IMG/VR virus record: IMGVR_UViG_3300029610_000240
DNA: 64,000 nucleotides
Direction: 5' to 3' (one strand)
Origin: a virus
Taxonomy: Duplodnaviria > Heunggongvirae > Uroviricota > Caudoviricetes
Shown here piece after piece: positions 23,447 through 57,769 of this stretch (positions are counted from its first letter, which is position 1; every line of letters starts with the position of its first letter). The notes under the pieces were generated by a model, which was not told the origin of the DNA, did no database searches, and worked only from the letters and a program-made list of their open reading frames with translations. The translations under genes were made by a program, and so were the position numbers.

Positions 23447-23600
23447 CATCCTCTCCCATCTATAGAGGTGGGAGCTTCCCTAACCTCGGCAGGTTTGGTT
23501 CTCGTTCGATAGCACCAATGTGCTAAGCTTAAGCGAGCTAACCCCGTGTGTCCCACGGTTGTATTATGTGAAATTGTGGTTATGCAGTTACTATCCGCAT
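23447..23600 (-). ncRNA. TnpB omega-RNA region
   Basis: Sequence overlapping and extending past the 3' end of tnpB, GC-richer than its surroundings, ending at the element-end hairpin. Confidence 0.55.
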
Positions 23601-32730: not shown

Positions 32731-32802
32731 TGATGATGACTTAATTGATGATTTAAGACAAAGTTTTAAAAATATGTAACAGATATATGTAAAAACAAAT
32801 GG
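32731..32802 (+). CRISPR. guide module A: one spacer-like segment plus one repeat
   Basis: Repeat GTTTTAAAAATATGTAACAGATATATGTAAAAACAAATGG (32763..32802), preceded by TGATGATGACTTAATTGATGATTTAAGACAAA. Confidence 0.6.
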
Positions 32803-32804
32803 CA

Positions 32805-32872
32805 GTTACATAATGCGTAAGAATAAGAATGTATCGAATAAGTCTATATAAGTAGAATCTACCAGGTGGTAG
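32805..32872 (+). ncRNA. tracrRNA-like scaffold A
   Basis: Anti-repeat GTTACATAATGCGTAAGAAT pairs with ATATGTAAC of the repeat. Nexus AAGAATGTATCGAAT. Hairpins TCTA/TAGA and CTACC-AGG-TGGTAG (32859..32872). Confidence 0.65.
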
Positions 32873-32904
32873 AAAATATTAAAACTAACAGGAGATAATA
32901 TTTC

Positions 32905-36133: not shown

Positions 36134-36277
36134 GTTTTGTAATCGTGTAAAAGCACTTAAATATGCTGTAGAAGATGTTTTGTTACTGTGCAACGGAAAT
36201 ATGTCTAAATGATTTAATTTATTACTACTTTTTATTCCTTTGTTTTGTAACCGTGTAACGGAGACATGTCTAAATGG
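36134..36277 (+). CRISPR. guide module B mini-array (3 repeats)
   Basis: Repeats at 36134..36165 (decayed), 36177..36212 and 36242..36277 (GTTTTGTAACCGTGTAACGGAGACATGTCTAAATGG). Spacers are 11 nt and 29 nt (TTTAATTTATTACTACTTTTTATTCCTTT). Confidence 0.7.
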
Positions 36278-36356
36278 TCAAATTATTTTGCACGGTGCGT
36301 AAAAATAAGAAATTATCGAATAGGCTCGTTAAAACGAGAGCTGCCGTGTGGCAGTA
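36278..36356 (+). ncRNA. tracrRNA-like scaffold B
   Basis: TCAAATTATT linker. Anti-repeat TTGCACGGTGCGTAAAAAT pairs with ACCGTGTAA. Nexus AAGAAATTATCGAAT. Hairpins CTCGT-TAAA-ACGAG and CTGCC-GTGT-GGCAG. Confidence 0.75.
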
Positions 36357-36499
36357 AATCTAAGCTACATCAATTTCAAGATTATAATTTGGGAGGAGAA
36401 AATGTTTGGGAAAATTAATGTTTTTTATTTATTGTTGGCTATATATTTGTATTATTTGTTATATTCTTGCAGCCAAGAACAAGAAAGAAGGTGTAGTGT

Positions 36500-43699: not shown

Positions 43700-43847
43700 T
43701 GTATTTTGTGTAAAATGTGTTAAAAACATAATTGCCACAAATGATGATATGTGATACAATTTCATGGTAACATATGAATTGCACTCTGATGCAACGTAGT
43801 ATGTGATAAAGTTATGCTCGCATGAGACGAGATCTGCCGGGTGGCAG
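43700..43847 (+). ncRNA. degenerate tracr-like scaffold (module X)
   Basis: Repeat-like ATTTTGTGTAAAATGTG..ATTGCCACAAATGATG. Shortened nexus GTATGTGATAAAGTTATG. Intact hairpins CTCG-CATGAGA-CGAG (43817..43831) and CTGCC-GGGT-GGCAG (43834..43847). Confidence 0.45.
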
Positions 43848-43856
43848 AGGTAAAAA

Positions 43857-43880
43857 GGCCAGAGAATATCTGGTCTTTTT
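43857..43880 (+). terminator. rho-independent terminator after module X
   Basis: CCAGA-GAATAT-CTGG stem followed by TCTTTTT. Confidence 0.5.
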
Positions 43881-44159
43881 ACTTAAAAATAGAGTATTAT
43901 TTATTAGCATTTTCTGATATAATATAAGCAGTGTTAGAGAGATATATGTAACACCATCGTTTATTAGAAAAGAATATACAGGGAAATTGCATCATTTTAT
44001 ACAATTTCTAAAGCGAGAGGTATTCATATATCTCTCGTTTTTTTTATGTGAAGAGTATTCGATTGAATGCTCTTTTTTCTTTGTAATAATCTAAACGATT
44101 TGTTACAGATCATCTCCTGGCATGAGTAACAAAAAGCTAATATGAAAGGAAGATGCTCT

Positions 44160-45038
44160 ATGATGAAAGAAAAAGGACAATTCAAGAAAAAGTTTGTACA
44201 GAAGATTGCTACAATTATGATGGCAGCAGCTATGGTTGTGAGTGGTGGATTTGGAGTTGCACCAGCAGCGGATCATTCAGTATCCGTATATGCAACAGAT
44301 AATGCATATCGTGGTTATCATGTAACTTCTACGAAGACGGAAAAGAAACCTGCGACCTCATCTACAAAGAAAAGCAAGTTGTCAAAAAATCATGCAAACA
44401 AAACAACAAAAACAGTAACAACTACGACAACTAGCACAGGTTACAAGCATGTTGTTGCAAAAGACACGAAAACTGTAACAAAGACTGTCGTAACTACAAC
44501 AAAGGTATATTACAAAAAGACCTTAACAACAACTGTAAAAAAACAGGTAACTGTAACGACAACAACGATCAATTATCTGAGAAGCGGTAATCCAGATTAT
44601 ATGAAATTAATGGGAACAGTAAATACTCAGATTCCTACAAAGGTGGGGAATGCAATGAAAGCAGATGGATTAAAAGTAGTCCTGAATCCTAATTTATCTT
44701 ATGATGGAGTATATTCTGCTTCCAGAAATTCCATTGAAATGAAAAATAATGTAGATTATGGTTTTATGCATGAAATTGGACACTATGTGGATCGTAAGAC
44801 AGGATATGTTTCAGGCAGTACAGAATTTAAAAATATCTTTAATTCTGAAAAATCCAAATACAAAGGATTTTATTCTGACTGGAATTTAGATAGTGGAAAT
44901 TATGCAAGAACAAGCACTTCTGATTATTTTGCAGAATGTTTTAGAGATTACTACTTTAGTGCAAACTCCAGAAGCAAGTTAAAAGCAAATTGTCCTAAAT
45001 CTTATAGTTTTATTCAGAAAACAATCAATAAGTTCTAA
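44160..45038 (+). CDS. secreted zinc metalloprotease, anthrax-lethal-factor/PPEP (M34)-like domain
   Basis: Signal peptide, T/K-rich linker, MHEIGHYVD and downstream SDYFAECFRDYYFS. Confidence 0.6.
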   Translation: MMKEKGQFKKKFVQKIATIMMAAAMVVSGGFGVAPAADHSVSVYATDNAYRGYHVTSTKTEKKPATSSTKKSKLSKNHANKTTKTVTTTTTSTGYKHVVAKDTKTVTKTVVTTTKVYYKKTLTTTVKKQVTVTTTTINYLRSGNPDYMKLMGTVNTQIPTKVGNAMKADGLKVVLNPNLSYDGVYSASRNSIEMKNNVDYGFMHEIGHYVDRKTGYVSGSTEFKNIFNSEKSKYKGFYSDWNLDSGNYARTSTSDYFAECFRDYYFSANSRSKLKANCPKSYSFIQKTINKF

Positions 45039-45131
45039 ACAATCAATATTAATTTATCTCAGGAGTCAGTAAGCAGATGCTTACTGGCTCTTTTAGTATA
45101 CAGAAAAAAATGAGGAGAAGAACACGAAACA

Positions 45132-45959
45132 ATGGAAAACAAAAATAACATAAGCAAGTTAACAAAAATCTTATTTGTTGCACTAGCAATGGGAATGATC
45201 TTGATTTCCCCATATCAATTATGCAATGTGGCAGCAGCTGATAAATACTATGGATACCAGAAGAAAACAAAGAGTGTAAAAACAAAGATAACAGCATCTA
45301 AAAAGAAAGTACGTATAAAAAAGAAATATAGAGGAACAAGAACCACAAAAAATGTTGAAAGCAAATGGTCTGATTCTTATAAATATACATATGGAGATGC
45401 AAAAAAGATACATATAAAGACAGTTATAACCACTCAAAAAACATATCACGGATATTTTATTACGACAAAGCGAAATATTAAAACGACAACTACAGAAAAT
45501 AAAATCAATTTTGTTCGCAATCAGAAGAAAGTTAGTTTTAATGGCCGAATTCCAAGTAATGTACAGAAACAATTGAATAGTGAAAAAATACAGATCGTCA
45601 TAAATCCAAAATTGAAACATAATGGAATCTTTTCTCTGAAAGATAAGAAAATATCCATAAAATATAACTCCGACTATGTTTTATTACATGAAATAGGACA
45701 TTTTGTAAATTACAAAAATGGTGATGCTGCACATAGTTCAGAATTTTATAATATCTACTTAAAAGAAAGAAGTAAATATCGTGGATTCTATAACGATTAT
45801 TATGAAAAGTTAGACCTTGGAAAATATGAAAGAACTACTCCTGCGGAATATTTTGCCGGAGCATATCGGGATTATTATTTTAGCAAAGATTCTCGGAATC
45901 GATTAAAAAAATATTGTCCAAATACTTATAATTTTATTACTAAATACCATTTTATTTAA
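45132..45959 (+). CDS. secreted zinc metalloprotease, paralogue of 44160..45038
   Basis: Signal peptide, LHEIGHFVN and AEYFAGAYRDYYFS. Confidence 0.6.
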   Translation: MENKNNISKLTKILFVALAMGMILISPYQLCNVAAADKYYGYQKKTKSVKTKITASKKKVRIKKKYRGTRTTKNVESKWSDSYKYTYGDAKKIHIKTVITTQKTYHGYFITTKRNIKTTTTENKINFVRNQKKVSFNGRIPSNVQKQLNSEKIQIVINPKLKHNGIFSLKDKKISIKYNSDYVLLHEIGHFVNYKNGDAAHSSEFYNIYLKERSKYRGFYNDYYEKLDLGKYERTTPAEYFAGAYRDYYFSKDSRNRLKKYCPNTYNFITKYHFI

Positions 45960-46126
45960 AATATTGTAATTTTGTAATAAATATATATTAATGTGGGGGC
46001 ATTACATAAATAATGAAATAAAAAGGCGTATTATATTGAAAAAAGTATCAAAAAGTGTTAGCATATTACATATAGACAAGAGAATTCAGAAAAACAAAAT
46101 GTGTATTTTATAAGGAGGATACTTAC

Positions 46127-49100
46127 GTGCAGAATGGATTTTTAGGAATAACTGTTAGTAGTGAACAGGTTGGTTGGGCAGTTACAAATCCCAAATATGA
46201 GTTAGAACGTGCATCTCGAAAAGATTTATGGGGTGTAAGGCTTTTTGATAAAGCAGAAACAGCGGAAGATCGAAGAATGTTCCGTACAAACAGACGATTA
46301 AATCAGAGAAAAAAGAACAGAATACATTATCTTAGAGATATTTTCCATGAGGAAGTAAATCAAAAAGATCCTAACTTTTTTCAGCAATTAGATGAAAGCA
46401 ATTTCTGTGAAGATGATCGTACTGTAGAGTTTAATTTTGATACTAATCTTTATAAGAATCAGTTTCCAACAGTGTATCATTTAAGAAAATATCTAATGGA
46501 AACAAAAGATAAACCAGATATTCGTCTGGTATACTTAGCTTTTTCAAAATTTATGAAAAATCGAGGACATTTCTTATACAAAGGAAATCTTGGAGAGGTT
46601 ATGGACTTTGAAAATTCCATGAAAGGCTTTTGTGAAAGTTTAGAGAAATTTAATATTGACTTCCCTACATTATCAGATGAACAGGTAAAAGAAGTCCGAG
46701 ATATCTTATGTGATCATAAAATTGCTAAAACTGTGAAAAAGAAAAACATCATTACTATTACAAAAGTAAAAAGTAAGACAGCAAAAGCATGGATTGGACT
46801 GTTTTGTGGTTGCAGCGTTCCTGTTAAAGTATTATTTCAGGATATCGATGAAGAAATTGTAACGGATCCAGAAAAAATCTCATTTGAAGATGCTTCTTAT
46901 GATGATTGTATTGCAAATATTGAAAAGGGTGTCGGTATTTATTATGAAGCTATTGTTTCTGCAAAGATGCTTTTTGACTGGTCTATCCTGAATGAAATTT
47001 TAGGTGACCATCAGTTATTAAGTGATGCAATGATCGCAGAATACAATAAGCATCATGATGATTTAAAGCGTTTACAGAAGATCATTAAAGGAACTGGCAG
47101 TAGAGAATTATATCAGGATATCTTTATTAATGATGTTTCTGGAAATTATGTATGCTACGTTGGTCATGCAAAAACAATGAGTAGTGCAGATCAGAAACAG
47201 TTTTATACATTTTTAAAAAATCGATTAAAAAATGTGAATGGTATTTCATCAGAAGATGCAGAATGGATTGATACAGAGATTAAAAACGGTACTTTACTAC
47301 CAAAACAGACAAAACGTGATAACAGTGTTATTCCGCATCAATTACAGTTAAGGGAATTTGAATTAATTCTTGATAACATGCAGGAAATGTATCCATTCTT
47401 AAAAGAAAACAGAGAAAAATTATTAAAAATCTTCAATTTCGTTATTCCTTATTATGTAGGTCCGCTAAAGGGCGTTGTAAGAAAAGGAGAGAGTACAAAC
47501 TGGATGGTGCCTAAAAAAGATGGTGTGATTCATCCATGGAATTTCGATGAAATGGTAGACAAAGAAGCGTCTGCGGAATGTTTTATTTCCCGAATGACAG
47601 GAAATTGTAGTTATTTATTTAATGAAAAAGTTCTTCCAAAGAATTCTCTTCTTTATGAGACATTTGAGGTATTAAATGAGCTAAATCCATTAAAGATCAA
47701 TGGAGAACCTATCAGCGTGGAATTAAAACAGAGAATTTATGAACAGCTTTTCTTGACAGGGAAAAAAGTTACAAAAAAATCTCTGACAAAATATCTTATC
47801 AAGAATGGCTATGACAAAGATATTGAATTATCAGGTATTGATAATGAATTTCACAGCAATCTAAAATCTCATATTGATTTTGAGGATTACGATAATCTAT
47901 CTGATGAAGAAGTTGAACAGATTATTCTTAGAATTACAGTATTTGAAGATAAGCAGCTGTTAAAAGATTATTTAAATCGCGAGTTTGTAAAGCTCTCTGA
48001 GGATGAGAGAAAACAGATTTGCTCATTATCTTATAAAGGATGGGGAAACTTATCAGAAATGCTATTAAACGGTATTACTGTAACAGATTCCAATGGTGTA
48101 GAAGTTTCTGTAATGGATATGCTGTGGAATACAAACTTAAATCTGATGCAGATCTTAAGTAAGAAATATGGATATAAAGCAGAAATCGAACATTACAATA
48201 AAGAACATGAAAAAACCATTTATAATCGTGAAGATTTGATGGATTATTTAAATATTCCACCGGCTCAGCGTAGGAAGGTAAATCAGCTGATTACGATAGT
48301 AAAATCTCTCAAAAAGACATATGGAGTTCCAAATAAGATTTTCTTCAAAATAAGCAGAGAACATCAGGATGATCCAAAGAGAACTTCATCCAGAAAAGAA
48401 CAGCTAAAATATTTATACAAATCCTTAAAATCAGAAGATGAAAAACATCTTATGAAAGAGCTTGATGAATTGAACGATCATGAATTATCCAATGATAAAG
48501 TTTATCTTTATTTTCTACAGAAAGGACGCTGCATTTATTCTGGCAAGAAATTAAATCTTTCAAGATTAAGAAAATCTAATTATCAGAATGATATTGACTA
48601 CATTTATCCATTATCTGCAGTAAATGATCGTTCTATGAATAATAAGGTATTAACGGGAATCCAGGAGAATCGAGCAGACAAGTATACCTATTTTCCAGTT
48701 GATTCAGAAATTCAGAAAAAAATGAAGGGATTTTGGATGGAACTGGTTCTGCAGGGATTTATGACAAAGGAGAAATACTTCCGATTATCCAGAGAAAATG
48801 ATTTTTCAAAGAGCGAACTTGTTAGCTTTATTGAACGTGAAATTTCAGATAATCAGCAAAGTGGAAGAATGATTGCTTCTGTATTACAGTATTATTTCCC
48901 TGAATCAAAGATTGTATTTGTAAAAGAAAAGCTGATTTCTTCCTTTAAGAGGGATTTCCATTTAATTAGTAGTTATGGTCACAATCATTTACAAGCTGCA
49001 AAAGATGCTTATATTACGATTGTAGTTGGAAATGTATATCATACAAAATTTACAATGGACCCAGCAATCTATTTTAAGAATCATAAGAGAAAAGATTATG

Positions 49101-50065
49101 ATCTGAACCGATTATTCTTAGAAAATATCAGCAGAGATGGACAGATTGCATGGGAAAGTGGTCCATATGGGTCAATTCAGACGGTTCGAAAAGAATATGC
49201 TCAAAACCATATTGCTGTTACAAAAAGAGTCGTGGAAGTAAAAGGCGGCTTATTTAAGCAGATGCCATTAAAAAAAGGACATGGCGAATATCCATTAAAA
49301 ACCAATGATCCTAGATTTGGCAATATCGCACAGTATGGAGGGTATACGAATGTCACAGGTTCCTATTTTGTATTAGTAGAATCAATGGAGAAAGGGAAAA
49401 AACGTATTTCTTTAGAATATGTTCCAGTATATCTTCATGAGCGTTTAGAGGATGATCCTGGACATAAACTGTTAAAAGAATATCTGGTTGATCACAGAAA
49501 ACTTAATCATCCAAAGATTTTACTTGCAAAAGTAAGAAAAAACTCATTACTTAAGATTGACGGTTTTTATTATCGTTTAAATGGTCGAAGTGGAAATGCT
49601 CTTATCCTTACAAATGCAGTGGAATTGATCATGGATGACTGGCAGACAAAAACAGCAAACAAGATTTCTGGATACATGAAACGCAGAGCTATTGATAAGA
49701 AAGCAAGGGTTTATCAAAATGAATTCCATATTCAGGAATTAGAACAGCTTTATGATTTTTATTTAGATAAATTAGAGAATGGTGTTTATAAAAATCGTAA
49801 GAATAATCAGGCTGAATTAATTCACAACGAAAAAGAACAGTTTATGGAACTCAAGACAGAAGATCAGTGTGTATTATTGACTGAGATTAAAAAGCTTTTT
49901 GTATGTTCTCCAATGCAGGCAGACCTTACATTGATTGGTGGCAGCAAACACACAGGAATGATTGCTATGTCAAGCAATGTTACAAAAGCAGATTTTGCAG
50001 TCATTGCGGAAGATCCTTTAGGACTTAGAAACAAAGTAATTTATTCTCATAAAGGTGAGAAGTAA
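46127..50065 (+). CDS. cas9: Cas9 homologue (type II-A-like size) with substituted RuvC and HNH catalytic residues
   Basis: GTG start 7 nt after AAGGAGGA. Conserved: bridge helix RRMFRTNRRLNQRKKNRIHYLRDIF, FPTVYHLRKYL, NRGHFLYKG, IPHQLQL, IPYYVGPL, PWNFDEMVDKEASAECFISRMT, YKGWGNLS. Catalytic columns: LGITVSSEQVGWAV (D10 is T), IFFKISREHQ (E762 is K), DIDYIYPLS (H840 is Y), QAAKDAYITIVVG (H983 is A, D986 kept). Confidence 0.9.
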   Translation: MQNGFLGITVSSEQVGWAVTNPKYELERASRKDLWGVRLFDKAETAEDRRMFRTNRRLNQRKKNRIHYLRDIFHEEVNQKDPNFFQQLDESNFCEDDRTVEFNFDTNLYKNQFPTVYHLRKYLMETKDKPDIRLVYLAFSKFMKNRGHFLYKGNLGEVMDFENSMKGFCESLEKFNIDFPTLSDEQVKEVRDILCDHKIAKTVKKKNIITITKVKSKTAKAWIGLFCGCSVPVKVLFQDIDEEIVTDPEKISFEDASYDDCIANIEKGVGIYYEAIVSAKMLFDWSILNEILGDHQLLSDAMIAEYNKHHDDLKRLQKIIKGTGSRELYQDIFINDVSGNYVCYVGHAKTMSSADQKQFYTFLKNRLKNVNGISSEDAEWIDTEIKNGTLLPKQTKRDNSVIPHQLQLREFELILDNMQEMYPFLKENREKLLKIFNFVIPYYVGPLKGVVRKGESTNWMVPKKDGVIHPWNFDEMVDKEASAECFISRMTGNCSYLFNEKVLPKNSLLYETFEVLNELNPLKINGEPISVELKQRIYEQLFLTGKKVTKKSLTKYLIKNGYDKDIELSGIDNEFHSNLKSHIDFEDYDNLSDEEVEQIILRITVFEDKQLLKDYLNREFVKLSEDERKQICSLSYKGWGNLSEMLLNGITVTDSNGVEVSVMDMLWNTNLNLMQILSKKYGYKAEIEHYNKEHEKTIYNREDLMDYLNIPPAQRRKVNQLITIVKSLKKTYGVPNKIFFKISREHQDDPKRTSSRKEQLKYLYKSLKSEDEKHLMKELDELNDHELSNDKVYLYFLQKGRCIYSGKKLNLSRLRKSNYQNDIDYIYPLSAVNDRSMNNKVLTGIQENRADKYTYFPVDSEIQKKMKGFWMELVLQGFMTKEKYFRLSRENDFSKSELVSFIEREISDNQQSGRMIASVLQYYFPESKIVFVKEKLISSFKRDFHLISSYGHNHLQAAKDAYITIVVGNVYHTKFTMDPAIYFKNHKRKDYDLNRLFLENISRDGQIAWESGPYGSIQTVRKEYAQNHIAVTKRVVEVKGGLFKQMPLKKGHGEYPLKTNDPRFGNIAQYGGYTNVTGSYFVLVESMEKGKKRISLEYVPVYLHERLEDDPGHKLLKEYLVDHRKLNHPKILLAKVRKNSLLKIDGFYYRLNGRSGNALILTNAVELIMDDWQTKTANKISGYMKRRAIDKKARVYQNEFHIQELEQLYDFYLDKLENGVYKNRKNNQAELIHNEKEQFMELKTEDQCVLLTEIKKLFVCSPMQADLTLIGGSKHTGMIAMSSNVTKADFAVIAEDPLGLRNKVIYSHKGEK

Positions 50066-50106
50066 GTTTTCATATTTGTTCGGAAAATTCATAATCATAT
50101 CGAACG

Positions 50107-50259
50107 GCTTTGGAACTGCGTAGAACATGATATGTCTTATGGCTAAAAGAATTACAGGTGCATATTTTGAACTGTGTAAAACATGGCATATGGGAGAATT
50201 GGCAACGACTGGAACAGAACACAGTTTTGAAACTGTATAAAACATGACATGTCTTATGG
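50107..50259 (+). CRISPR. guide module C mini-array (3 repeats), starting 42 nt after the cas9 stop
   Basis: Repeats at 50107..50142 (6 mismatches), 50164..50193 (30 nt, decayed) and 50224..50259 (GTTTTGAAACTGTATAAAACATGACATGTCTTATGG). Spacers: 21 nt CTAAAAGAATTACAGGTGCAT and 30 nt GAGAATTGGCAACGACTGGAACAGAACACA. Confidence 0.75.
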
Positions 50260-50336
50260 TTCAAATTATTTATACAGTACGTGAAAATAAGAAATTATCG
50301 AATAAACTCGTTTAGACGAGAACTGCTAGAGGCAGT
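50260..50336 (+). ncRNA. tracrRNA-like scaffold C
   Basis: Anti-repeat TTTATACAGTACGTGAAAAT gives a 10-bp perfect pairing with ACTGTATAAA. Nexus AAGAAATTATCGAAT. Hairpins CTCGT-TTAG-ACGAG and CTGC-TAGAG-GCAG (50323..50335). Confidence 0.8.
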
Positions 50337-50352
50337 AATTGCAGAAAATGTC

Positions 50353-50385
50353 ATGAACCCCAAGCGACTTCGTCGGCCGGGGGTT
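50353..50385 (+). terminator. GC-rich hairpin after module C
   Basis: AACCCC..CGAC-TTC-GTCG..GGGGTT nested stem followed by a short T run. Confidence 0.45.
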
Positions 50386-50448
50386 TACGCACCAATTTGA
50401 TAATATTTCTAATCATATATTACCTTATATGATTAATGGAGAAAATAG

Positions 50449-50595
50449 ATGTTTCAAGTAAAAAATAAAGAAACTGGGCAAGAATATACCGTATATGCTG
50501 TCGGGGATGAATATCTGACAAAATTTCTGATTTATGAAGATGGACATTGGAAATGGCAGACTATAGATGATTTTGTTCCAGTGATTGTAGATTAA
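50449..50595 (+). CDS. 48-aa hypothetical protein
   Basis: ATG behind GGAGAAAATAG. Product MFQVKNKETGQEYTVYAVGDEYLTKFLIYEDGHWKWQTIDDFVPVIVD. Below the ORF-track cut-off. Confidence 0.4.
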   Translation: MFQVKNKETGQEYTVYAVGDEYLTKFLIYEDGHWKWQTIDDFVPVIVD

Positions 50596-50612
50596 GAAAG
50601 CGAGAAATTCAC

Positions 50613-50957
50613 ATGAAGATTACAAGAACGATTAAATTTAAAGAATATATCCTCGGATATTTAGAAAAATTAGAGGTTCATGAAGTTCGACGCATTGAAA
50701 AAGCCGGACGATTAAGCCGTGACATTATCAAAGAGGAATCTGAAAAATGCGGACACAAATTAATGATTCTTGATACGATTGAAAAAGAAAGACGTTATGA
50801 ATGTTCATTAGAAGATTTCTTATCCGTTGCAAGAGAGATTCCACTAAAAAATCAGGAGACTGTTAATACAGAAGAAAAAAATGTTCAGGAAGATAATTCA
50901 GAGGATTCTAAGTCTAAGTTAGGCGATTCTGACTGTGCCCCTTGGATTGAAGATTAA
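50613..50957 (+). CDS. hypothetical protein
   Basis: 114-aa ORF lying between guide modules C and D. Confidence 0.5.
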   Translation: MKITRTIKFKEYILGYLEKLEVHEVRRIEKAGRLSRDIIKEESEKCGHKLMILDTIEKERRYECSLEDFLSVAREIPLKNQETVNTEEKNVQEDNSEDSKSKLGDSDCAPWIED

Positions 50958-50961
50958 TGTT

Positions 50962-51117
50962 ATTTTGAGAAATGATTGCAAATGTGATCGTAGCGTACCT
51001 TACTTCACAGCTTAGTTTTGGAACTATGTAAAATCAAATGATTGCAAATGGGCAGAGAGAAAATTTGAAAAATTGTCTGTGTTTTGGAACTATGTAAAAT
51101 CAAATGATTGCAAATGG
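50962..51117 (+). CRISPR. guide module D mini-array (3 repeats)
   Basis: Repeats at 50962..50985 (internally deleted), 51015..51051 and 51081..51117 (GTTTTGGAACTATGTAAAATCAAATGATTGCAAATGG). Spacers: GATCGTAGCGTACCTTACTTCACAGCTTA and GCAGAGAGAAAATTTGAAAAATTGTCTGT. Confidence 0.8.
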
Positions 51118-51193
51118 TCAAAGTAATTGCATGGCGTGTAAAAATAAGAATTTATCGAAATAATTTGCTCCGGCGAAATCTGCAAGATGCAGA
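51118..51193 (+). ncRNA. tracrRNA-like scaffold D
   Basis: TCAAAGTAA linker. Anti-repeat TTGCATGGCGTGTAAAAAT pairs with CTATGTAA through two G:U. Nexus AAGAATTTATCGAAAT. Hairpins TTTGC-TCCG-GCGAA and TCTGC-AAGA-TGCAGA. Confidence 0.75.
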
Positions 51194-51197
51194 AATC

Positions 51198-51265
51198 AAG
51201 CTGATCGATGCTTTACATATTTATCTATTTCAATATTTCTTCAACCATATACATTGATCAGCTTT
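51198..51265 (+). terminator. long-loop inverted repeat with AGCTGATC core (possible terminator)
   Basis: AAGCTGATCGATG pairs with CATTGATCAGCTT (13 bp, one G:U) around a 42-nt loop. A related element lies at 54054..54131. Confidence 0.4.
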
Positions 51266-51290
51266 AATAAAAAGAATTAAAATTACGAAA

Positions 51291-51445
51291 ATAAAATTGA
51301 ATGATTCCAATGGATAGTCGAAAAAGAATTGGATAGTCGACGGGTTTTAGAATAGTGTAAAATTGAATGATTCTAAGGGTTAGATACTCCACTAGATAGC
51401 AAAGTACTTGTTTTAGAATAGTGTAAAATTAAATGATTCTAAGGG
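51291..51445 (+). CRISPR. guide module E mini-array (3 repeats)
   Basis: Repeats at 51292..51313 (3' half only), 51344..51379 (GTTTTAGAATAGTGTAAAATTGAATGATTCTAAGGG) and 51410..51445. Spacers: ATAGTCGAAAAAGAATTGGATAGTCGACGG and TTAGATACTCCACTAGATAGCAAAGTACTT. Confidence 0.8.
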
Positions 51446-51528
51446 GTCAAATAGATTCTATACAATGCGTGAAAATAAGAAACTTATCGAACAAACCTGT
51501 GTAGGAAACAGGAACTGCCGAGGGCAGT
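51446..51528 (+). ncRNA. tracrRNA-like scaffold E
   Basis: GTCAAATAGAT linker, anti-repeat TCTATACAATGCGTGAAAAT, nexus AAGAAACTTATCGAAC. Hairpins CCTGT-GTAGGAA-ACAGG and CTGCC-GAG-GGCAG (51515..51527). Confidence 0.75.
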
Positions 51529-51823
51529 AAAAATAAAAAGCATATTTTTATTATGTTTTATTTTATGATGAAGAGGTGGATGATGGTTCTATCTCTGTTT
51601 TTGAGAAAATGGATGCATTGCAAAATGCAACAATCTTAGAAGTACAAATACATATTGATGACTTAAAAGATAAATTGGAAGAAGTAAAATTTACTCTTAA
51701 AATATCAGGTTTGTATTTGAAGAAGATAATTTTATGGATTCTTATTATAAATCTTATACGTTACCGATTGTATATCACAAAAACTATTTATTAAGTATTA
51801 ACAATGATAAGGAATAACAATAA

Positions 51824-53755
51824 ATGGAAATAGATTACAGAAAAGAATTAAATAAGAGTCAATATGAAGCTGTTACAACGACAGAAGGACCAGTCCTAAT
51901 CCTTGCCGGTGCCGGAACTGGCAAAACTCGTTGTATGGTATATCGTGTGGCATATCTGATTGAAAAAGGCGTGTCACCCAATAATATCTTATTATTGACC
52001 TTTACAAATAAAGCAGCAAATGAAATGAAGCAAAGGGCAGCAGATATGCTTGATGAACGATGTAGTCAAATTACTGCATGTACATATCATTCATTCTGTG
52101 CAAAGATGCTTCGCAAATATTCACAACTGATTGGAATTCAATCAGATTATACAATTATTGATCCGGGAGATTGTGCAGATATCATATCGATCATCGAAAC
52201 AGAACACGGTATGGATAAAGTAAAAGATTTTCCAAGATCATCTCAACTGGTATCAGCACATAGCAAAGCCTTAAATACGAATCAGTCATTAGAGGATACT
52301 TTGTTTGATATGCTCGGTAAATGGAAGTATATGGAAATCGAAAGATTCATTCCAGATATAAAGAAAATCTTAGCGGATTATCAATCATACAAAAAACAAA
52401 ACAACATGATGGATTATGATGATTTGCTAATCAATTTTATATCTGTATTGAAAAGAAACCCTTCTATAAAGAATAAATTAGCTGATATTTATCAGTATAT
52501 TATGATCGACGAATATCAGGATTCTAATTATTTACAGGAAAAGATTATTTTTATGTTACGTGAAAAGAATCGTAACTTAGCAGTGGTAGGTGATGATTAC
52601 CAATGCATCTATGGATTTAGAGGAAGTATGGTAGAAAATATCATTAATTTTCCACAAAAGATGTCCGGATGTAAAGTTGTTTACTTAACACAGAATTATC
52701 GCAGCAATCAAGAGATCATGGATTTATCCAATATTGTTATGAAAAAACATTCACTGGAAGGTTTTTTTAAAAAGCTTGTCGCAACTCATGTGGCCAATAT
52801 TCAGCCATTGCTAGTTCGATCAGAGGACGAGGGCGAAGAAGCTTCTTATATTTTAAATAAGATTATGGCATTACATGATGAAGAAGAGATTCCGTATCAT
52901 GAAATTTGTGTTCTTGAAAGAAGTTCTTATCATTCTGTAAGACTAGAAGCACTTTTAAATAAAATGAAAATCCCATATGACAAATATGGTGGAATGAAGT
53001 TTTTTGATTATGATCATATCAAAAACTTCTTATGCTTTTTGCGATGTCAGATAAATCCACATGATGAAATTGCGTGGTTTCGACTATTAAAGTTATTTGA
53101 TGGTATTGGAAATGTTTATGCCAGAAATATCGCAGCAACATGTAAAACTCTTGGATTAGAGGGACTTGTTCAACACAAATACATAAAAAGAAAATTTCAG
53201 CCGGATCTTGAAAATTTAAAGAGTTTTATTGAAAAGCTTAATGATCAAGATTTTCAGATCGAATTGCAAAGCATTAAATCATTTTATTCACGTTTAATGG
53301 ACATTACATTAATGCTGATGAAAACATCGGAGAAGAAACGTAGGGAGCTTGCTAGAGCAAATAAACAAGCGGTCCGCGATTTTGATACACTGATTGAAAT
53401 GGCAGATGGATATGATTCTCCAGTGACATTTCTGGAAGAAATAATGCTTGAAGCCAGTCCTCAGAAAGAGGAAGAGGAAGATCGAATGGTTATATCTACA
53501 ATTCATTCCGCAAAAGGCTTAGAGTTTCACTCTGTTTTTGTTATGAACTGCGTAGATACAATGTTTCCATCTACAGATAAAGATCAGATTGGAACAGTAG
53601 AAGATAACGAAGAGTTGAGATGCTTCTATGTGGCAATAACACGGGCAAAAGAACGATTATTTTTAATGGCACCGAAATATATAGCCAAATTTGGATGTGT
53701 TGAAGAGGGAATTATCTCCCATTTTATTAGTGATGTTTTTCAAGTAAAGGAGTAA
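51824..53755 (+). CDS. UvrD/PcrA-type SF1 DNA helicase
   Basis: Walker A AGAGTGKT, motif II IMIDEYQDSN, QNYRSNQEI, late STIHSAKGLEF and FYVAITRAKERL. Confidence 0.85.
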   Translation: MEIDYRKELNKSQYEAVTTTEGPVLILAGAGTGKTRCMVYRVAYLIEKGVSPNNILLLTFTNKAANEMKQRAADMLDERCSQITACTYHSFCAKMLRKYSQLIGIQSDYTIIDPGDCADIISIIETEHGMDKVKDFPRSSQLVSAHSKALNTNQSLEDTLFDMLGKWKYMEIERFIPDIKKILADYQSYKKQNNMMDYDDLLINFISVLKRNPSIKNKLADIYQYIMIDEYQDSNYLQEKIIFMLREKNRNLAVVGDDYQCIYGFRGSMVENIINFPQKMSGCKVVYLTQNYRSNQEIMDLSNIVMKKHSLEGFFKKLVATHVANIQPLLVRSEDEGEEASYILNKIMALHDEEEIPYHEICVLERSSYHSVRLEALLNKMKIPYDKYGGMKFFDYDHIKNFLCFLRCQINPHDEIAWFRLLKLFDGIGNVYARNIAATCKTLGLEGLVQHKYIKRKFQPDLENLKSFIEKLNDQDFQIELQSIKSFYSRLMDITLMLMKTSEKKRRELARANKQAVRDFDTLIEMADGYDSPVTFLEEIMLEASPQKEEEEDRMVISTIHSAKGLEFHSVFVMNCVDTMFPSTDKDQIGTVEDNEELRCFYVAITRAKERLFLMAPKYIAKFGCVEEGIISHFISDVFQVKE

Positions 53756-53791
53756 TTTATAGTGAAATGCTTAAATTATGTTGTCAATGTG

Positions 53792-53965
53792 GATTTGAAT
53801 CCATGTAAAAATGTAAAGCAAATGATTCCAAATGGCAATCTTCTCGAATTGTCGTGTAGGCAAAGTTTTGAAACCATGTAAAAAAATGATTCCAAATGGG
53901 TATGCATTGGTGTTTGAAGCGTTTGTGTGTTTTGGAACCATGTAAAAGCAAATGATTCCAAATGG
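53792..53965 (+). CRISPR. guide module F mini-array (3 repeats)
   Basis: Repeats at 53792..53835 (internal duplication), 53865..53899 (2-nt deletion) and 53929..53965 (GTTTTGGAACCATGTAAAAGCAAATGATTCCAAATGG). Spacers: CAATCTTCTCGAATTGTCGTGTAGGCAAA and GTATGCATTGGTGTTTGAAGCGTTTGTGT. Confidence 0.8.
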
Positions 53966-54043
53966 TTAAAAGCAGATTACATGGTGTGTCAAAATAAGAA
54001 CTTATCGAATAGATCTATATAAATGGAATCTGCCAGGTGGCAG
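53966..54043 (+). ncRNA. tracrRNA-like scaffold F
   Basis: Anti-repeat TTACATGGTGTGTCAAAAT gives a 9-bp perfect pairing with ACCATGTAA. Nexus AAGAACTTATCGAAT. Hairpin 2 CTGCC-AGGT-GGCAG (54030..54043). Hairpin 1 is weak and resembles that of scaffold A. Confidence 0.75.
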
Positions 54044-54053
54044 AAAAAAACTG

Positions 54054-54131
54054 AAAAAGCTGATCAATAATAACTGTTGTTACCATAATATTAATTTATG
54101 TTTTTGTATTTTGTCTATTGATCAGCTTTTT
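54054..54131 (+). terminator. 16-bp perfect long-loop inverted repeat with AGCTGATC core
   Basis: AAAAAGCTGATCAATA pairs perfectly with TATTGATCAGCTTTTT around a 46-nt loop. Confidence 0.5.
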
Positions 54132-54133
54132 GC

Positions 54134-55411
54134 ATGAAAATGAAAGTTATAAATATGGCAATGAAGAAAGTCGGTGATGATAAATTGAGAAGAAAAGTAG
54201 TCAGTTTTTTACTTGTTACACTTATGATGGCAACGATCACTCCTGTACATGCAGATGAGGTGTCAGAACCAACAACTGCTGCGACAGAAGTTACAACAAC
54301 AGAAACGAAGCCGACTACGACAGAAAAAAAAGAAACAACTCATCATAAGGAAAAAACAGTAAAAAAAGATAAGAAAACAAAAAAGAAAAATACTAAAAAA
54401 GATGGGAAAAAGAAAAGTAAACAAAAAGAAAAATCTAAAAAAAAGGAAAACAAAAAATCAACAATTCCGATGCCTAAACGGGCTGTAAAGAAAAAAGGTT
54501 GTGATACTGTACAAAAGAAGATTGTAAAAATGCAATCAAAGATTAAAAAGTTGCAGAAAGAACAAAAAAATATCCGAAAAGAGATCAAAAAAGAAAATAA
54601 TAAAAAAGAAGCACTGCAGCGATTTTATCAGCAATATCCTACAGAGCGTGAAGCAACTATGAAACTGCGAGGACAAAAGATTACACCTCTTACTAAGATT
54701 TCAGAGGAAGACGATGCATTAAGAAATAGATTATTCAGTTTAGCTAATACATTTCATGACGATCAACTACGTAAAATTGCCTCTGAGTACGTCTTTGGCG
54801 TAAGAGATCTTAATTTTGAAGACCTGTTAAACGAGGATGATACCATTGACCTTAATACATATTTAAAAGGCAAATATATTGCTCCAACGCAGAATATGCA
54901 GATAGGAATTAAAAATAAGGATCAAGAAATTCAAAAATTAAAGAAACAGATCAAAGAGGAAAAGAAAACCAGATTTTTTGATCCGAAAAACGTAAATTCT
55001 ATTAGCAATATTACAGTTGATGATGCTAAAAAGATGTTGTCTGGAACGCAATTATATCCAGAAGCAGAAGCTTTTGTTAAAGCAGAAAGAATTCATCATG
55101 TAAATGCAGTCTTTTTAATGGGAATTGCTGCACATGAAAGTGCCTGGGGAACAAGCCGGCGTGCCAGAGAAGATAATAATTTAACTGGATATGGAGTTTA
55201 CTCAGATAGTGCAAAGGGCATCAATAAGACAAGCAAAGAAGAAGGATTATTAGCCACCGCTGAGACATTGCACGAACGATACTTAACCCCTGGAGGCAGC
55301 TATTACGAAGGAACTTCCGTTGCTGATGTAAATAAACATTATTGTGTCGGAAATGAATGGGCCGGAGCGGTAGTTGGTTATGCTTATCAATTAATGAATA
55401 AACTAAATTAG
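54134..55411 (+). CDS. secreted Lys-rich protein with C-terminal GH73-type glucosaminidase domain
   Basis: Signal peptide and K/E-rich low-complexity linker. AVFLMGIAAHESAWGTSRRAREDNNLTGYGV is the FlgJ/GH73 catalytic region. Confidence 0.75.
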   Translation: MKMKVINMAMKKVGDDKLRRKVVSFLLVTLMMATITPVHADEVSEPTTAATEVTTTETKPTTTEKKETTHHKEKTVKKDKKTKKKNTKKDGKKKSKQKEKSKKKENKKSTIPMPKRAVKKKGCDTVQKKIVKMQSKIKKLQKEQKNIRKEIKKENNKKEALQRFYQQYPTEREATMKLRGQKITPLTKISEEDDALRNRLFSLANTFHDDQLRKIASEYVFGVRDLNFEDLLNEDDTIDLNTYLKGKYIAPTQNMQIGIKNKDQEIQKLKKQIKEEKKTRFFDPKNVNSISNITVDDAKKMLSGTQLYPEAEAFVKAERIHHVNAVFLMGIAAHESAWGTSRRAREDNNLTGYGVYSDSAKGINKTSKEEGLLATAETLHERYLTPGGSYYEGTSVADVNKHYCVGNEWAGAVVGYAYQLMNKLN

Positions 55412-55543
55412 ATATCATCAAAGAGGTTTTGGTTAACTAAAGGTTGATTATCGGTATATCATTGTTCGGTGTCTGTAGACAGCATTTTTTCAAATCTATA
55501 GTTGTTATAAAATAAGAGACACTTTCATGTATAGTGGAGTTTA

Positions 55544-55570
55544 GTTTCAGAAGTTTATAAAAACAGATAA
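55544..55570 (+). CRISPR. guide module G: single divergent repeat
   Basis: GTTTCAGAAGTTTATAAAAACAGATAA, preceded by the candidate guide GAGACACTTTCATGTATAGTGGAGTTTA. Confidence 0.5.
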
Positions 55571-55580
55571 CTATTAATGA

Positions 55581-55658
55581 TTATCTGTTTCATGGATTGT
55601 GTAAAAATAAGCAAATTAGCGAATATGCTCGTTGAAACGAGAGCTGTTAGATAACAGC
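55581..55658 (+). ncRNA. tracrRNA-like scaffold G
   Basis: TTATCTGTTT pairs perfectly with AAACAGATAA across a 10-nt loop. GATTGTGTAAAAAT, nexus variant AAGCAAATTAGCGAAT. Hairpins CTCGT-TGAA-ACGAG and GCTGTTA-GA-TAACAGC. Confidence 0.6.
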
Positions 55659-55710
55659 TAAAAATGTAACTATATAAATTAATTTGTAAATTATAGGGAG
55701 GACTATTTTA

Positions 55711-55866
55711 GTGAAACACGGTAAAGTTCCAACAAGAAATCAAAAAGAACTTATGTTAAAAAATAATCTTAATCCGAAAGAATGGCTGGTTGTAAAGAAA
55801 ATGGCGGATGGATTTGAGATTGTTAATAGAGAAAATGAAGCAGATCGTAAATTTCTGTATTGTTAA
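55711..55866 (+). CDS. 51-aa small protein
   Basis: GTG start behind GGGAGGA. Product MKHGKVPTRNQKELMLKNNLNPKEWLVVKK.. resembles small conserved proteins of Firmicutes mobile elements, recalled from memory. Below the ORF-track cut-off. Confidence 0.45.
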   Translation: MKHGKVPTRNQKELMLKNNLNPKEWLVVKKMADGFEIVNRENEADRKFLYC

Positions 55867-55875
55867 GGTGAAATA

Positions 55876-56091
55876 ATGATGGATATTTACACAAGATTAT
55901 TGATGATGGATATTATGATATCGGCAGTAGCTATTATGGTAAATATCTTAGAAAATTGTCCGATTAACGGTAAAATACACAATATTTCAAGAATTTTAAT
56001 CATATCTAGTATTGCTGCAGACATTATCTTACTTTTAGGAATTGTCAATACGTTCATCTCATACAGTATCCTGTATTCTTATTTTAAATAA
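55876..56091 (+). CDS. small membrane protein
   Basis: 71 aa with two hydrophobic helices. Its stop overlaps the first, partial repeat of module H. Confidence 0.45.
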   Translation: MMDIYTRLLMMDIMISAVAIMVNILENCPINGKIHNISRILIISSIAADIILLLGIVNTFISYSILYSYFK

Positions 56092-56094
56092 GAT

Positions 56095-56249
56095 ACAGAA
56101 GAATCATTGTCGATGTTAAACATATTATGTGAAACATTATTGTCAGGCTTTAGAAGTCTATAAAACAGAATCATTGTCAATGAGATCAAATTCTTTATGA
56201 CAACGCAATACAGCTTTAGAAGTCTATAAAACAGAATCATTGTCAATGG
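56095..56249 (+). CRISPR. guide module H mini-array (3 repeats)
   Basis: Repeats at 56095..56115 (3' half only), 56147..56183 and 56213..56249 (GCTTTAGAAGTCTATAAAACAGAATCATTGTCAATGG). Spacers: TTAAACATATTATGTGAAACATTATTGTCAG and GATCAAATTCTTTATGACAACGCAATACA. Confidence 0.8.
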
Positions 56250-56325
56250 TCAAATAAGCAGACTGCGTAAAAATAAGAATTTTATCGATATTGCTCGTGT
56301 AGTCGAGAACTGCCAAGTGGCAGCA
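56250..56325 (+). ncRNA. tracrRNA-like scaffold H
   Basis: TCAAATAAG linker, anti-repeat CAGACTGCGTAAAAAT, nexus AAGAATTTTATCGAT. Hairpins CTCG-TGTAGT-CGAG and CTGCC-AAGT-GGCAG (56310..56323). The next gene's RBS follows 18 nt later. Confidence 0.75.
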
Positions 56326-56352
56326 ACATTTATAATAAAAAGGAGGAATTAT

Positions 56353-57006
56353 ATGCGAAAACAAGTTTTTGCAACGATTGGTTGTGCTATCTTTTTACTG
56401 ATCGTAGTAGGTTTCCTGATGATGGCATATTCTTCTTATACAAAACATCAAGAGGAAATTGCTGAACAAAAATTAATAAAGCAGGAAAGAAAAGAATCAC
56501 GAAAAACACTTCAATCATCAGAAGAAAGGGAATGGAATCTGGACTGCCTGTGGGAGCATGTTATCGAAATTGATGGTACAGAAATTGAAGTACCAATTAA
56601 ATACAATGATCTGATCAAGACACTTGGAAACAAAGTGAAAGAAGCTAAAGATAAAAAAATCATGCTACAAAATGGACAGGTTTTATGGCTGAATTGTACA
56701 AAAGATGAAAAAGACTCTATGAATAATGGAAAAGATAAAGCAATGGTTTATGGTATATCTACACAACAGGACGCTAAAGATTCTTGTGTTACAATTCAGA
56801 AAATCAAAACTGGAATGTCTTATGATAAATTAAAGGAATATTATGAGACTCCAGTTACGAAAGATGATTCCCAAAGTATTTCTGTACTGCAATATGCTGA
56901 TCCGAAATCTGATTTAGATATCACACAGCAGAATGTGACTGTTTATCTGGATAACAATACAGTGGTTGGATTAGGTATATATTATGACGGAAGTAAGGAG
57001 GAATAG
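56353..57006 (+). CDS. membrane-anchored hypothetical protein
   Basis: ATG at 56353 behind AAAGGAGGA. One N-terminal TM helix. Confidence 0.55.
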   Translation: MRKQVFATIGCAIFLLIVVGFLMMAYSSYTKHQEEIAEQKLIKQERKESRKTLQSSEEREWNLDCLWEHVIEIDGTEIEVPIKYNDLIKTLGNKVKEAKDKKIMLQNGQVLWLNCTKDEKDSMNNGKDKAMVYGISTQQDAKDSCVTIQKIKTGMSYDKLKEYYETPVTKDDSQSISVLQYADPKSDLDITQQNVTVYLDNNTVVGLGIYYDGSKEE

Positions 57007-57007
57007 G

Positions 57008-57238
57008 ATGGAAAATAAAAATAAACCAAACCAAGAATTATTAACTATTAAAGAAACGGCAAAATTATTAAAAGTAAATCCACATAGAGTATATGACTTA
57101 GTGAGAATGGGAATTTTGCCAGCACTAAAATTAGGAAGCCTGAAAATACGAAGACAGGCATTAAATGAATTCCTTGAAGAATATGAAGGGATGGATCTGA
57201 CAGATTTAAATGAGATCAAAAAATTAGAAGTTAAATAA
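57008..57238 (+). CDS. excisionase-type HTH DNA-binding protein
   Basis: ATG behind AAGGAGGA. LLTIKETAKLLKVNPHRVYDLVRMGILPALKLGSLKIRRQALNEF is the excisionase/MerR-like winged helix. Confidence 0.7.
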   Translation: MENKNKPNQELLTIKETAKLLKVNPHRVYDLVRMGILPALKLGSLKIRRQALNEFLEEYEGMDLTDLNEIKKLEVK

Positions 57239-57660
57239 AAAGGAGCTGTTATGTCGGGATAATCTGATATAATAGCTCTTTTTTTGTAGCAAATTCTAAA
57301 TACTAATTAACAAATTAACTATATTATAAAGGATAATTTGATGATGGTAAATAATGAAGTCCCACGTCAGGCCCACGGAGAGTGCGGCACGAATAAGCAC
57401 GTATATGCATAATATACATAAAAATAGCATGCGTGATACGTTCTGGTTGTGAAAAATATACGAAAAAAGCACAAAATAACACGATATAACATAGGTAGTC
57501 ATTCGCAGTTGGGTTGGGTAACAACCCAATGGTAGGAGCTACAGTAGCTGTAGCTGTATCTATTGAGGAAGCTGCTAAAGCAGGTAAATTCTAGGAAACC
57601 ACGTATTTAAGCGGTTTTTTGAGGGTGTTAGAAGTGGTAAAAAGTAGTGAAATGTAGACA

Positions 57661-57704
57661 ATCTCTATATTATCTCTACACTATCTCTATACCACATCTC
57701 TACA
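57661..57704 (+). repeat. four direct ATCTCTA(T/C)A repeats (candidate recombinase arm sites)
   Basis: Copies start at 57661, 57672, 57683 and 57696 (spacing 11, 11, 13 bp), about 65 bp beyond the 3' end (stop) of the integrase gene. Confidence 0.5.
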
Positions 57705-57769
57705 CTCAAAAATGTGAATAAGAAGAGAGAGCCAATTAATTTTGACTCTCTTTTTTTCTTCGTTTTATT

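Follow-up and report, generated by a model that had tools for sequence, protein, structure and literature searches.

The closest described case to the system reported here is CampyICE1 of Campylobacter jejuni and C. coli, a conjugative or integrative element that has a lone cas9 and three short clustered regularly interspaced short palindromic repeat (CRISPR) arrays, without cas1 or cas2, for which borrowing of the host Cas1-Cas2 has been proposed (PMC8743540). We analyzed a 64,000-nt stretch of DNA (IMG/VR virus record IMGVR_UViG_3300029610_000240; here, the window) that carries an integrative island whose host is Anaerostipes hadrus, a common bacterium of the human gut. Like CampyICE1, whose spacers target competing mobile DNA, the island is a mobile element with a lone cas9, no cas1 or cas2, and several scattered short arrays. 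CampyICE1 is, however, type II-C, with a single trans-activating CRISPR RNA (tracrRNA) encoded in the opposite orientation inside one array, with conserved RuvC and HNH motifs and a spacer diversity reported as low, whereas the island system is II-A-like, has a tracrRNA in cis for each array, has lost catalytic residues of Cas9 and shows brisk spacer turnover.

The nearest canonical relatives of the island system (L021 and L022) are cas9-cas1-cas2-csn2-array loci with about 40% Cas9 identity and a related repeat. With these loci and with S. thermophilus CRISPR1 the island shares the Cas9 domain layout, 36-nt repeats, 30-nt spacers and a protospacer-adjacent motif (PAM) on the 3' side; the repeats are recognizably related (GTTTGAGAATGATGTAAAAAT... 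versus GTTTTAGAATAGTGTAAAATT...), and the guide duplex is likewise composed of a lower stem, a bulge and an upper stem. Unlike canonical type II-A loci, the island has no adaptation module, carries eight tracrRNA copies, takes up spacers at the downstream end of its arrays and not at a 5' leader, and has lost nuclease residues. These features place the system within type II and not as a separate kind of system.

Outside type II, Cas12m and type IV-A are binding-only effectors, and type IV systems often lack adaptation genes and acquire spacers in trans. Defence by binding alone, free of DNase activity, is also described for Cas12c (10.1101/2021.12.06.471469). Carriage on a mobile element and an expected DNA binding without cleavage would liken the island to these systems, which are type V or class 1 effectors whereas the island is type II. 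Finally, in tracr-L (10.1101/2020.05.21.102756) and in the phage vsgRNAs (10.64898/2026.06.01.729453), guide, repeat-like strand, anti-repeat and tail lie on one strand with a predicted fold like that of a single-guide RNA (sgRNA), as in the island, and both work with a Cas9 that binds without cutting. Their guides are 11-14 nt long, directed at the cas9 promoter and used by an active Cas9, whereas the island guides are full 30-nt spacers for which no match was found in the cas9 promoter, and the island unit is at the same time the growing end of an array.

As a whole, we consider it reasonably probable that the island encodes a nuclease-dead Cas9 maintained by selection, which works with eight cis array-tracrRNA units, four of them live, in binding-only interference with spacers supplied in trans. 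With more reserve, and short of an even call, we suggest a widespread natural "dCas9" system for phage defence, and perhaps gene control, that would act by binding alone and whose cassettes would be refilled in trans via an inverted leader-like motif.

Catalytic motifs and selection in Cas9

The cas9 gene (46127..50065, plus strand) encodes a 1312-aa, type II-A-like protein, as judged by Pfam and by alignments, with matches to Cas9_REC (1.5e-138), Cas9_PI (2e-57), the bridge helix and HNH_4. The type II-A architecture is thus present, namely a REC lobe, a bridge helix, a PAM-interacting domain and an HNH domain inserted in RuvC, and the closest solved relative is 9jwk (E=7e-216). Catalytic residues were read from an alignment of this protein with solved Cas9, ten canonical relatives and the island family (71-100% identity). 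Where the canonical relatives have GLDLGT in RuvC-I, the island family has GITVSS, replacing the Asp by Thr; in RuvC-II, FVEMARE has become FFKISRE (Glu to Lys), and in RuvC-III the His of LHHAKDAY is lost (LQAAKDAY, H to A). The DIDH of the HNH domain reads DIDY, with the His replaced by Tyr, although lineage P0020 retains the His. All or most members of the family have these altered motifs. RuvC has therefore lost three of its four catalytic residues; what remains is its final Asp and, in HNH, the Asp and the Asn, so that neither the RuvC (D, E, H, D) nor the HNH (D, H, N) set of type II-A is complete. With its catalytic residues replaced, RuvC is very unlikely to cut DNA, and in the copy of the window HNH is unlikely to do so.

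The whole HNH domain has been removed in frame in sixteen protein clusters (P0003-P0018), which represent the same Cas9 at 96-100% identity. At least seven different deletion junctions were counted, and one HNH-deleted variant resides in an otherwise normal island, pointing to recurrent independent loss of HNH in natural populations. HNH-deleted copies are seen, for example, in loci L011 and L012 (cas9 at 10001-13471).

The ratio of nonsynonymous to synonymous substitution rates (dN/dS) of cas9 is 0.087 against the 89%-identical lineage and 0.077 against the 74%-identical lineage, and that of the HNH segment is 0.04-0.08. These low values indicate that the gene is not decaying and is under strong purifying selection. 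They bear directly on the explanation in which the locus is a decaying remnant, a dead Cas9 with relic arrays and no present function. The lost catalytic residues, the HNH-deleted variants and the missing adaptation genes would all suit a remnant. A dN/dS of 0.08 in all domains over 26% protein divergence would not, nor would the intact REC lobe, bridge helix and PAM-interacting domain, the compensatory changes that maintain eight repeat:anti-repeat pairs and the tail hairpins, the turnover of spacers, or a protein cluster of 2780 members. We regard this explanation as highly improbable. The most economical reading of the Cas9 sequence is that the protein would bind its targets without cleaving them. 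Literature searches found neither a natural nuclease-dead Cas9 nor a type II counterpart of the binding-only effectors.

Eight array units with a tracrRNA in cis

Eight array-tracrRNA units, all on the plus strand, were found downstream of cas9 and, in addition, at 32.8 and 36.2 kb. Dispersed in this way, they have taken the place of a single array with one tracrRNA. Six of them (B, C, D, E, F and H) start as a mini-array in which three repeats (35-36 nt) enclose two spacers, and A and G are single-repeat units. Module A (32763..32875) consists of a single repeat, an anti-repeat and a RAGATH-30 tail. Module B (36134..36357) has three repeats, spacers of 11 nt (36166-36176) and 30 nt, and a tracr tail at 36299-36357. 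Module C (50107..50338) has repeats at 50107-50142, 50165-50193 and 50224-50259, the last one intact, with spacers of 22 nt (50143-50164) and 30 nt, followed by linker, anti-repeat and tracr tail (50260-50338). In module D (50959..51195), the first repeat (50959-50984) is followed by spacer D1 (50985-51014), the second repeat, spacer D2 (51051-51080), the third repeat (51081-51116) and a tracr part that extends to 51195. Module E (51292..51530) begins with a half repeat (51292-51313) and continues with repeats at 51344-51379 and 51410-51445, two 30-nt spacers and a tracr part to 51530; module F (53791..54046) has repeats at 53791-53834, 53865-53899 and 53929-53964 and a tracr part to 54046. 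Module G (55544..55660) is sgRNA-like, its single repeat being fused via a long stem to the anti-repeat and then the tail, with an invariant upstream sequence. Module H (56096..56326) has a half repeat (56096-56115), spacers of 31 and 30 nt, repeats at 56147-56182 and 56213-56248, and a tracr part to 56326.

After the last repeat of each unit, a short linker leads to an anti-repeat that is predicted to pair with the first ~17 bases of the repeat, that is, with its 5' part as in type II-A. On the 3' side of the anti-repeat stands AAAAUAAG...UAUCGAA, and then two hairpins. The predicted fold is common to all units and comprises a lower stem (GUUUU:AAAAU), an asymmetric bulge and an upper stem of 8-9 bp. 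Since last repeat, linker, anti-repeat and tail lie on one strand, a unit can fold in cis like a single-guide RNA. The helices are supported by compensatory changes: across 11 units from three lineages, five of the nine upper-stem pairs are altered on both sides, 93.8% of the cells are paired as compared with 38-49% when the partners are slid, and both tail hairpins co-vary.

The 58-62-nt end of each unit matches the Rfam family RF03055 (RAGATH-30) over its full length. The eight hits score 64.7-78.6 bits, above the gathering score of 59.5, and sister loci contain additional ones. Eight such hits together with compensatory helix changes argue that the unit pattern is not due to chance. In Rfam, RF03055 is entered as a small RNA whose role is unknown, and no mention of RAGATH-30 was found in the literature searched. 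The fold in cis and its covariation argue that RAGATH-30 is the tail of a tracrRNA; as predicted from these alignments, it is the nexus and hairpin part, and the functional unit reaches upstream to the anti-repeat. The cross-pairing energies show that the units are not strictly orthogonal, and the tails are without following U-tracts.

Another small-RNA gene, here named X (43732..43884, plus strand), is served by its own strong promoter of the extended -10 type (TTGCCA-17-TACAAT with TG) and contains a pair of hairpins (z = -4.9) as well as an intrinsic terminator. Its hairpins resemble the tracr tail, no anti-repeat is recognizable in it, and it was not detected as RF03055 at E<=1. X is conserved in the 74%-identical L015 lineage, upstream of the protease genes.

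Repeat decay was scored repeat by repeat, taking each module's own terminal repeat as reference. In every multi-repeat module the 5' repeat is damaged and the repeat adjoining the anti-repeat is intact. In B, the first repeat matches at 27/35 positions with indels and the second at 30/35; in C, the first has 6 mismatches and the second is truncated to 29 nt. The first repeat of D is reduced to 26 nt by an internal deletion, those of E and H are 3' halves of 22 and 20 nt, respectively, and that of F contains an internal duplication of 7 nt. As for the middle repeats, those of D and H do not differ from the terminal one, that of E has 1 difference, and that of F matches at 33/36 with a 2-nt deletion. 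The original prediction, made by a model from the letters of this stretch, had described this pattern of decay, and the alignment bears it out for every module, including the truncated middle repeat of C and the good preservation of the repeat next to the anti-repeat. It had also listed two abnormally short spacers, of which the 11-nt one in B was found as given and the one in C measures 22 nt instead of 21. The span it gave for the locus, 43700-56330, contains modules C to H, and modules A and B lie outside it.

Spacers enter at the tracrRNA-proximal end

We compared 33 island copies, whose backbones are 98.4-100% identical, many of them 99.9-100%. Modules D, E, F and H together hold 34 different spacers in these near-identical backbones. 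Module D has 8 array alleles and 10 spacers, with forms such as D1, D1-D2 (the window) and D1-D3, and also D4 and D4-D5. Module E has 5 alleles and 6 spacers, the 5' spacer being common to all copies and the five others tracr-proximal, and module F has 9 alleles and 14 spacers, among them F1-F2 (the window) and F1-F2-F3, and also F4 and F4-F5-F6. Among close copies, H occurs in 4 spacer combinations with 1, 2 or 3 spacers and the 5' one in common (H1, H1-H2 in the window, and H1-H3-H4). The window and L003 differ by 3 SNPs (single-nucleotide polymorphisms) in ~16 kb, and their flanks are identical, yet each of two arrays differs by one unit; in F, both L002 and L003 have one additional tracr-proximal unit.

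Wherever alleles share spacers, the 5'-most spacer is always common, and the differences are tracrRNA-proximal or arise via internal deletions, as in F of L028 versus L032 and H of L025 versus L024; no other types of change were seen among the copies. Added units always bear the repeat variant of their own module, and in L015 two tracr-proximal repeats have a SNP in common. Common 5' spacers, tracr-proximal differences and the module's own repeat in the new units indicate polarized acquisition at the transcriptionally downstream end. D, E, F and H are thus live arrays, in which new spacers are added beside the tracrRNA part together with a copy of the terminal repeat, and internal deletions remove old units.

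Type II-A insertion at a 5' leader (ATTTGAG or CTRCGAG) was not found in the island, where the variable spacers are 3' and tracr-proximal. The arrays of L021 and L022 have a leader ending in ...ATTTGAG at the 5' end, and in L021 the two 3'-most repeats are the variant ones. The polarity of decay in the island is the opposite of that in these relatives, and the proposed contrast with leader-driven acquisition thus holds. Because the differences are polarized to the 3' side, the decayed 5' repeat marks the trailer, or old, end; it is free to decay since it stands ahead of all spacers and is part of no CRISPR RNA (crRNA).

The four other modules behave differently in this comparison. A (as far as sampled), B, C and G are essentially invariant, with only point mutations or loss of a unit; the last unit of B is lost in two copies, and C is invariant in 22 copies save for point mutations in its proximal spacer. 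This spacer (50194-50223) exists in four variants that differ mainly in the PAM-proximal 9 nt (ACAGAACACA, ACTGAGCATA, ACGGAGCATA), a pattern that reflects either decay or the tracking of a changing target.

These observations decide much of the original prediction, in which the locus is non-adaptive, with one fixed scaffold-adjoining guide per unit, upstream repeats and spacers that are decaying relics, and selection acting only on the scaffold-proximal guide. Its point about adaptation genes is borne out: Pfam scans of ~60 open reading frames (ORFs) of at least 80 aa found no Cas1, Cas2, Csn2 or Cas4 beside cas9 or elsewhere in the window, and tblastn with Cas1, Cas2 and Csn2 of the nearest canonical loci gave no match or remnant in the window or in sister copies. 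Neither cas1 nor cas2 was found within 10 kb of cas9 in any family member at 71-100% identity, including the 89% and 74% lineages; the cas1-cas2-csn2 set that adjoins cas9 in type II-A is missing, and these three genes are gone from the island as far as it is visible. The fixed guides also hold for A, B, C and G, which are invariant save for point mutations or unit loss, and B and C each retain a single intact unit, the last. For D, E, F and H the view is contradicted by the 34 spacers in near-identical backbones with 3'-polarized differences. Moreover, 5' spacers in these four modules precede intact or nearly intact repeats, and D1, which precedes an intact repeat, matches a phage sequence at 30/30. 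The 5' decay is that of a trailer end and does not argue for selection on the scaffold-proximal guide only. A related lineage, L015, has a 7-repeat array. The strain comparison that had been proposed as a check for turnover at the 5' ends did uncover turnover, but at the 3' ends. Overall, a non-adaptive locus of this kind now appears improbable.

Another explanation is that the diversity was made elsewhere, the arrays being filled in a relative with cas1-cas2 and the same repeats and then spread by homologous recombination, with only loss occurring in the island itself. A diverged flank is linked to one D allele, internal deletions are observed, and one spacer is shared across lineages. The latter, GGTAATACTAACCTGTGTGCAAGGTCAAGG (GGTAATACTAACC...), is present both in module F of L028 and in the L015 array (L015:5586-5700), although the two Cas9 lineages are only 74% identical; either array segments were exchanged between elements or the same site was sampled twice. 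Import does not, however, account for repeat variants that are specific to the unit and always borne by new units, for the lack of any family member (71-100% identity) with cas1 or cas2 within 10 kb, or for the window and L003, in which identical flanks enclose two arrays that each differ by one unit. An origin of all diversity outside the island is in our view quite unlikely, and we retain acquisition at the tracrRNA-proximal end.

Targets, mode of action and genomic setting

Twelve spacers were searched against IMG/VR, and protospacers outside arrays were obtained for three of them. Spacer D1 of the window matches one viral contig at 30/30 and three at 29/30, E3 matches 32 viral contigs at 29/30, and L15a matches four contigs at 30/30. 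The matches fall in a PemK/MazF-like gene, a DUF2800 exonuclease gene and an ORF of unknown type, on contigs that encode phage DNA polymerase, exonuclease, primase-helicase, RecT and replication-initiator proteins. At least some of the spacers are therefore of phage origin. The spacers of two Cas9 lineages match neighbouring MazF-like and DUF2800 exonuclease genes in the same kind of phage replication module (L076:4323-5815 and L070:9420-10565). The 3' flanks of the three protospacers (GAAAAT, CAAACT and AGAAGT) give NNAANT (n=3), and the 5' flanks have no common pattern. The shared 3' flank indicates that the spacer orientation is right for plus-strand crRNAs, and it tentatively suggests that spacers were probably chosen with a PAM (n=3).

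Five spacers gave no match in IMG/VR or matched just their own array, and JGI metagenomes contained no protospacer for E2 or for the proximal spacer of C. When all spacers were compared with the window by Hamming distance, only the arrays matched, and the fetched island copies had no self-target outside arrays. A match of 23/30 between the proximal spacer of B and positions 26014-26043 was rejected, as it is without a PAM-proximal seed, and a similarity between F9 and F12 (19/30), considered as a possible shared target site, was no better than shuffled controls.

These searches bear on the possibility that gene regulation is the main role, in which the dead Cas9, with the fixed guides of A, B, C and G and perhaps the X RNA, would repress host or element genes in the manner of tracr-L or TldR, with a lesser part for the phage spacers. 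In its favour, self-targets are tolerable for an effector that is nuclease-dead, four guides do not vary, and the proximal spacer of C changes by point mutation only, its seed included. Searches with seeds of 10-16 nt in the 64-kb window returned, however, just one AT-rich 13-mer (at 12099), which is expected by chance, and no guide seed of at least 10 nt matches upstream of cas9. No full matches were present in the fetched loci, nor any in JGI metagenomes for the proximal spacer of C, in whose seed the drift could equally be decay. A mainly regulatory role is therefore rather unlikely.

The mode of action that we favour is binding-only interference with invading DNA. Cas9 would bind without cutting and, in the manner of Cas12c or type IV systems, obstruct transcription or replication. 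RNAs would be released from read-through transcripts by RNase III at the repeat:anti-repeat duplex, and A, B, C and G would be fixed guides. New spacers would be integrated by Cas1-Cas2(-Csn2) in trans, provided by the host or by an unseen part of the element, and the conserved linker may guide their integration. This linker is GTCAAA(T) in B, D, E, H, other copies of F and four units of two other lineages, with variants in C (TTCAAAT) and in F of the window (GTTAAAA); the single-repeat modules A and G are without the motif. Its GTCAAA columns vary hardly or not at all, in a loop that is variable elsewhere. The reverse complement of the linker, ATTTGAC, is one base from the ATTTGAG present in the canonical relatives, which is the conserved II-A leader end required for integration and adaptation (PMC5382924). 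An inverted leader anchor would explain the reversed polarity, and we treat the linker in this role as a lead only.

Several observations weigh against this model. The loss of Cas9 activity is deduced from sequence only, and HNH may still have a residual or altered activity, since P0020 retains the HNH His and HNH is under purifying selection. No source of Cas1 or Cas2 was found in the visible part of the element. Only three protospacers (3/12 spacers in IMG/VR) support the targets, n=3 is likewise the basis of the PAM, just one of these spacers is in the orientation that best blocks elongation for Sp-dCas9, and isolate phages (INPHARED) and plasmids (PLSDB) contained no target for 44 spacers. 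A scan for promoters and terminators gave no separation of the units (77 sites versus 67 expected). Taken singly, each comparison of gain versus loss can be explained by a deletion as well. Copies with the D allele TTATAAG... show 97.8% identity in the orf114 region, and since this diverged flank travels with the D allele, recombination between element variants adds diversity. Finally, the spacers have the opposite orientation to the anchor when compared with canonical II-A arrays, which weakens the leader-anchor idea. The 97.8%-identity stretch, a local recombination tract in a backbone of 98.4-100% identity, corresponds to 50350-50958 of the window, the ORF upstream of D, and is confined to exactly L002, L008, L023, L026, L027 and L030.

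The system is cargo near the xis/int end of an integrative element of A. hadrus. A recombination module (56984..59011) marks the island end and comprises an Xis-like HTH_17 protein (56984-57238, plus strand) and a tyrosine integrase (57770-59011, minus strand); host genes follow from ~60.9 kb onward. Sister copies have a terminal Tn916-Xis and a Tn916-type integrase, with differing insertion sites. No conjugation genes turned up in the 64-kb window, and no Cas9 on a Tn916-like element was found in the literature searches. A near-identical Cas9 is present in RefSeq (WP_044924278.1), its 90% protein cluster has 2780 members, and public assemblies contain the identical Cas9 protein in 76 blocks and the adjoining helicase in 2358 blocks. 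The island is abundant in human gut metagenomes and is also present in the complete genomes GCA_046994905.1 and GCA_047229745.1. No copy of it was found among INPHARED isolate phages or PLSDB plasmids, and GTDB species representatives contained neither the Cas9 nor the tail pattern, the 4 matches in unrelated phyla corresponding to chance expectation.

The neighbours of cas9 are those originally described: two ATLF-like metalloproteases upstream (44142-45959), small ORFs, and a UvrD/PcrA-like helicase (51824-53755, plus strand) between modules E and F. An ATLF gene adjoins cas9 in every lineage seen, and the helicase is kept in most copies and missing from the L015 lineage. Surface or secreted cargo was observed at 231-4673, 7513-11232, 40987-43065 and 44142-45959, and includes an LPXTG adhesin with SpaA/Cna_B repeats, a 1239-aa transglutaminase-like protein, a papain-like protease with a lectin domain and the two ATLF-like metalloproteases. 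An Eco57I-type N6 methylase beside a BsuBI/PstI-type restriction endonuclease, with an AAA_21 ATPase upstream (13979-16359), looks like a defence cluster. A HEARO RNA (RF02033, 112 bits) stands directly 5' of a 424-aa RRXRR+HNH protein, IscB (19765-21319); such a unit is an OMEGA/ISC element, a type reported from A. hadrus (PMC4810608). The window further contains a TnpB (OrfB_IS605 with a Cas12f-like TNB domain; 23580-24698, minus strand) and two IS200-type TnpA genes (7056-7493 and 17020-17433). With Cas9, IscB and TnpB, three different lineages of RNA-guided proteins are thus present on the island.

Cas9 has been studied more thoroughly than any other CRISPR effector. As far as literature searches tell, no natural nuclease-dead Cas9 lineage kept by selection has been described. 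If our reading is true, the island provides a type II counterpart of type IV and of Cas12c/Cas12m, and RAGATH-30, an orphan Rfam family, gains a function as the tail of a tracrRNA. With eight natural variants of the repeat:anti-repeat pair, all serving a single Cas9, the system would be useful in guide design and in multiplexed CRISPR interference (CRISPRi), and the abundance of the island in gut metagenomes makes phage protection by a dead Cas9 directly testable. The locus splits memory from the acquisition machinery, with arrays that turn over without cas1 or cas2 at the end opposite to that of their canonical relatives, and it may thereby offer a natural setting in which to study acquisition in trans and the features that define a leader.

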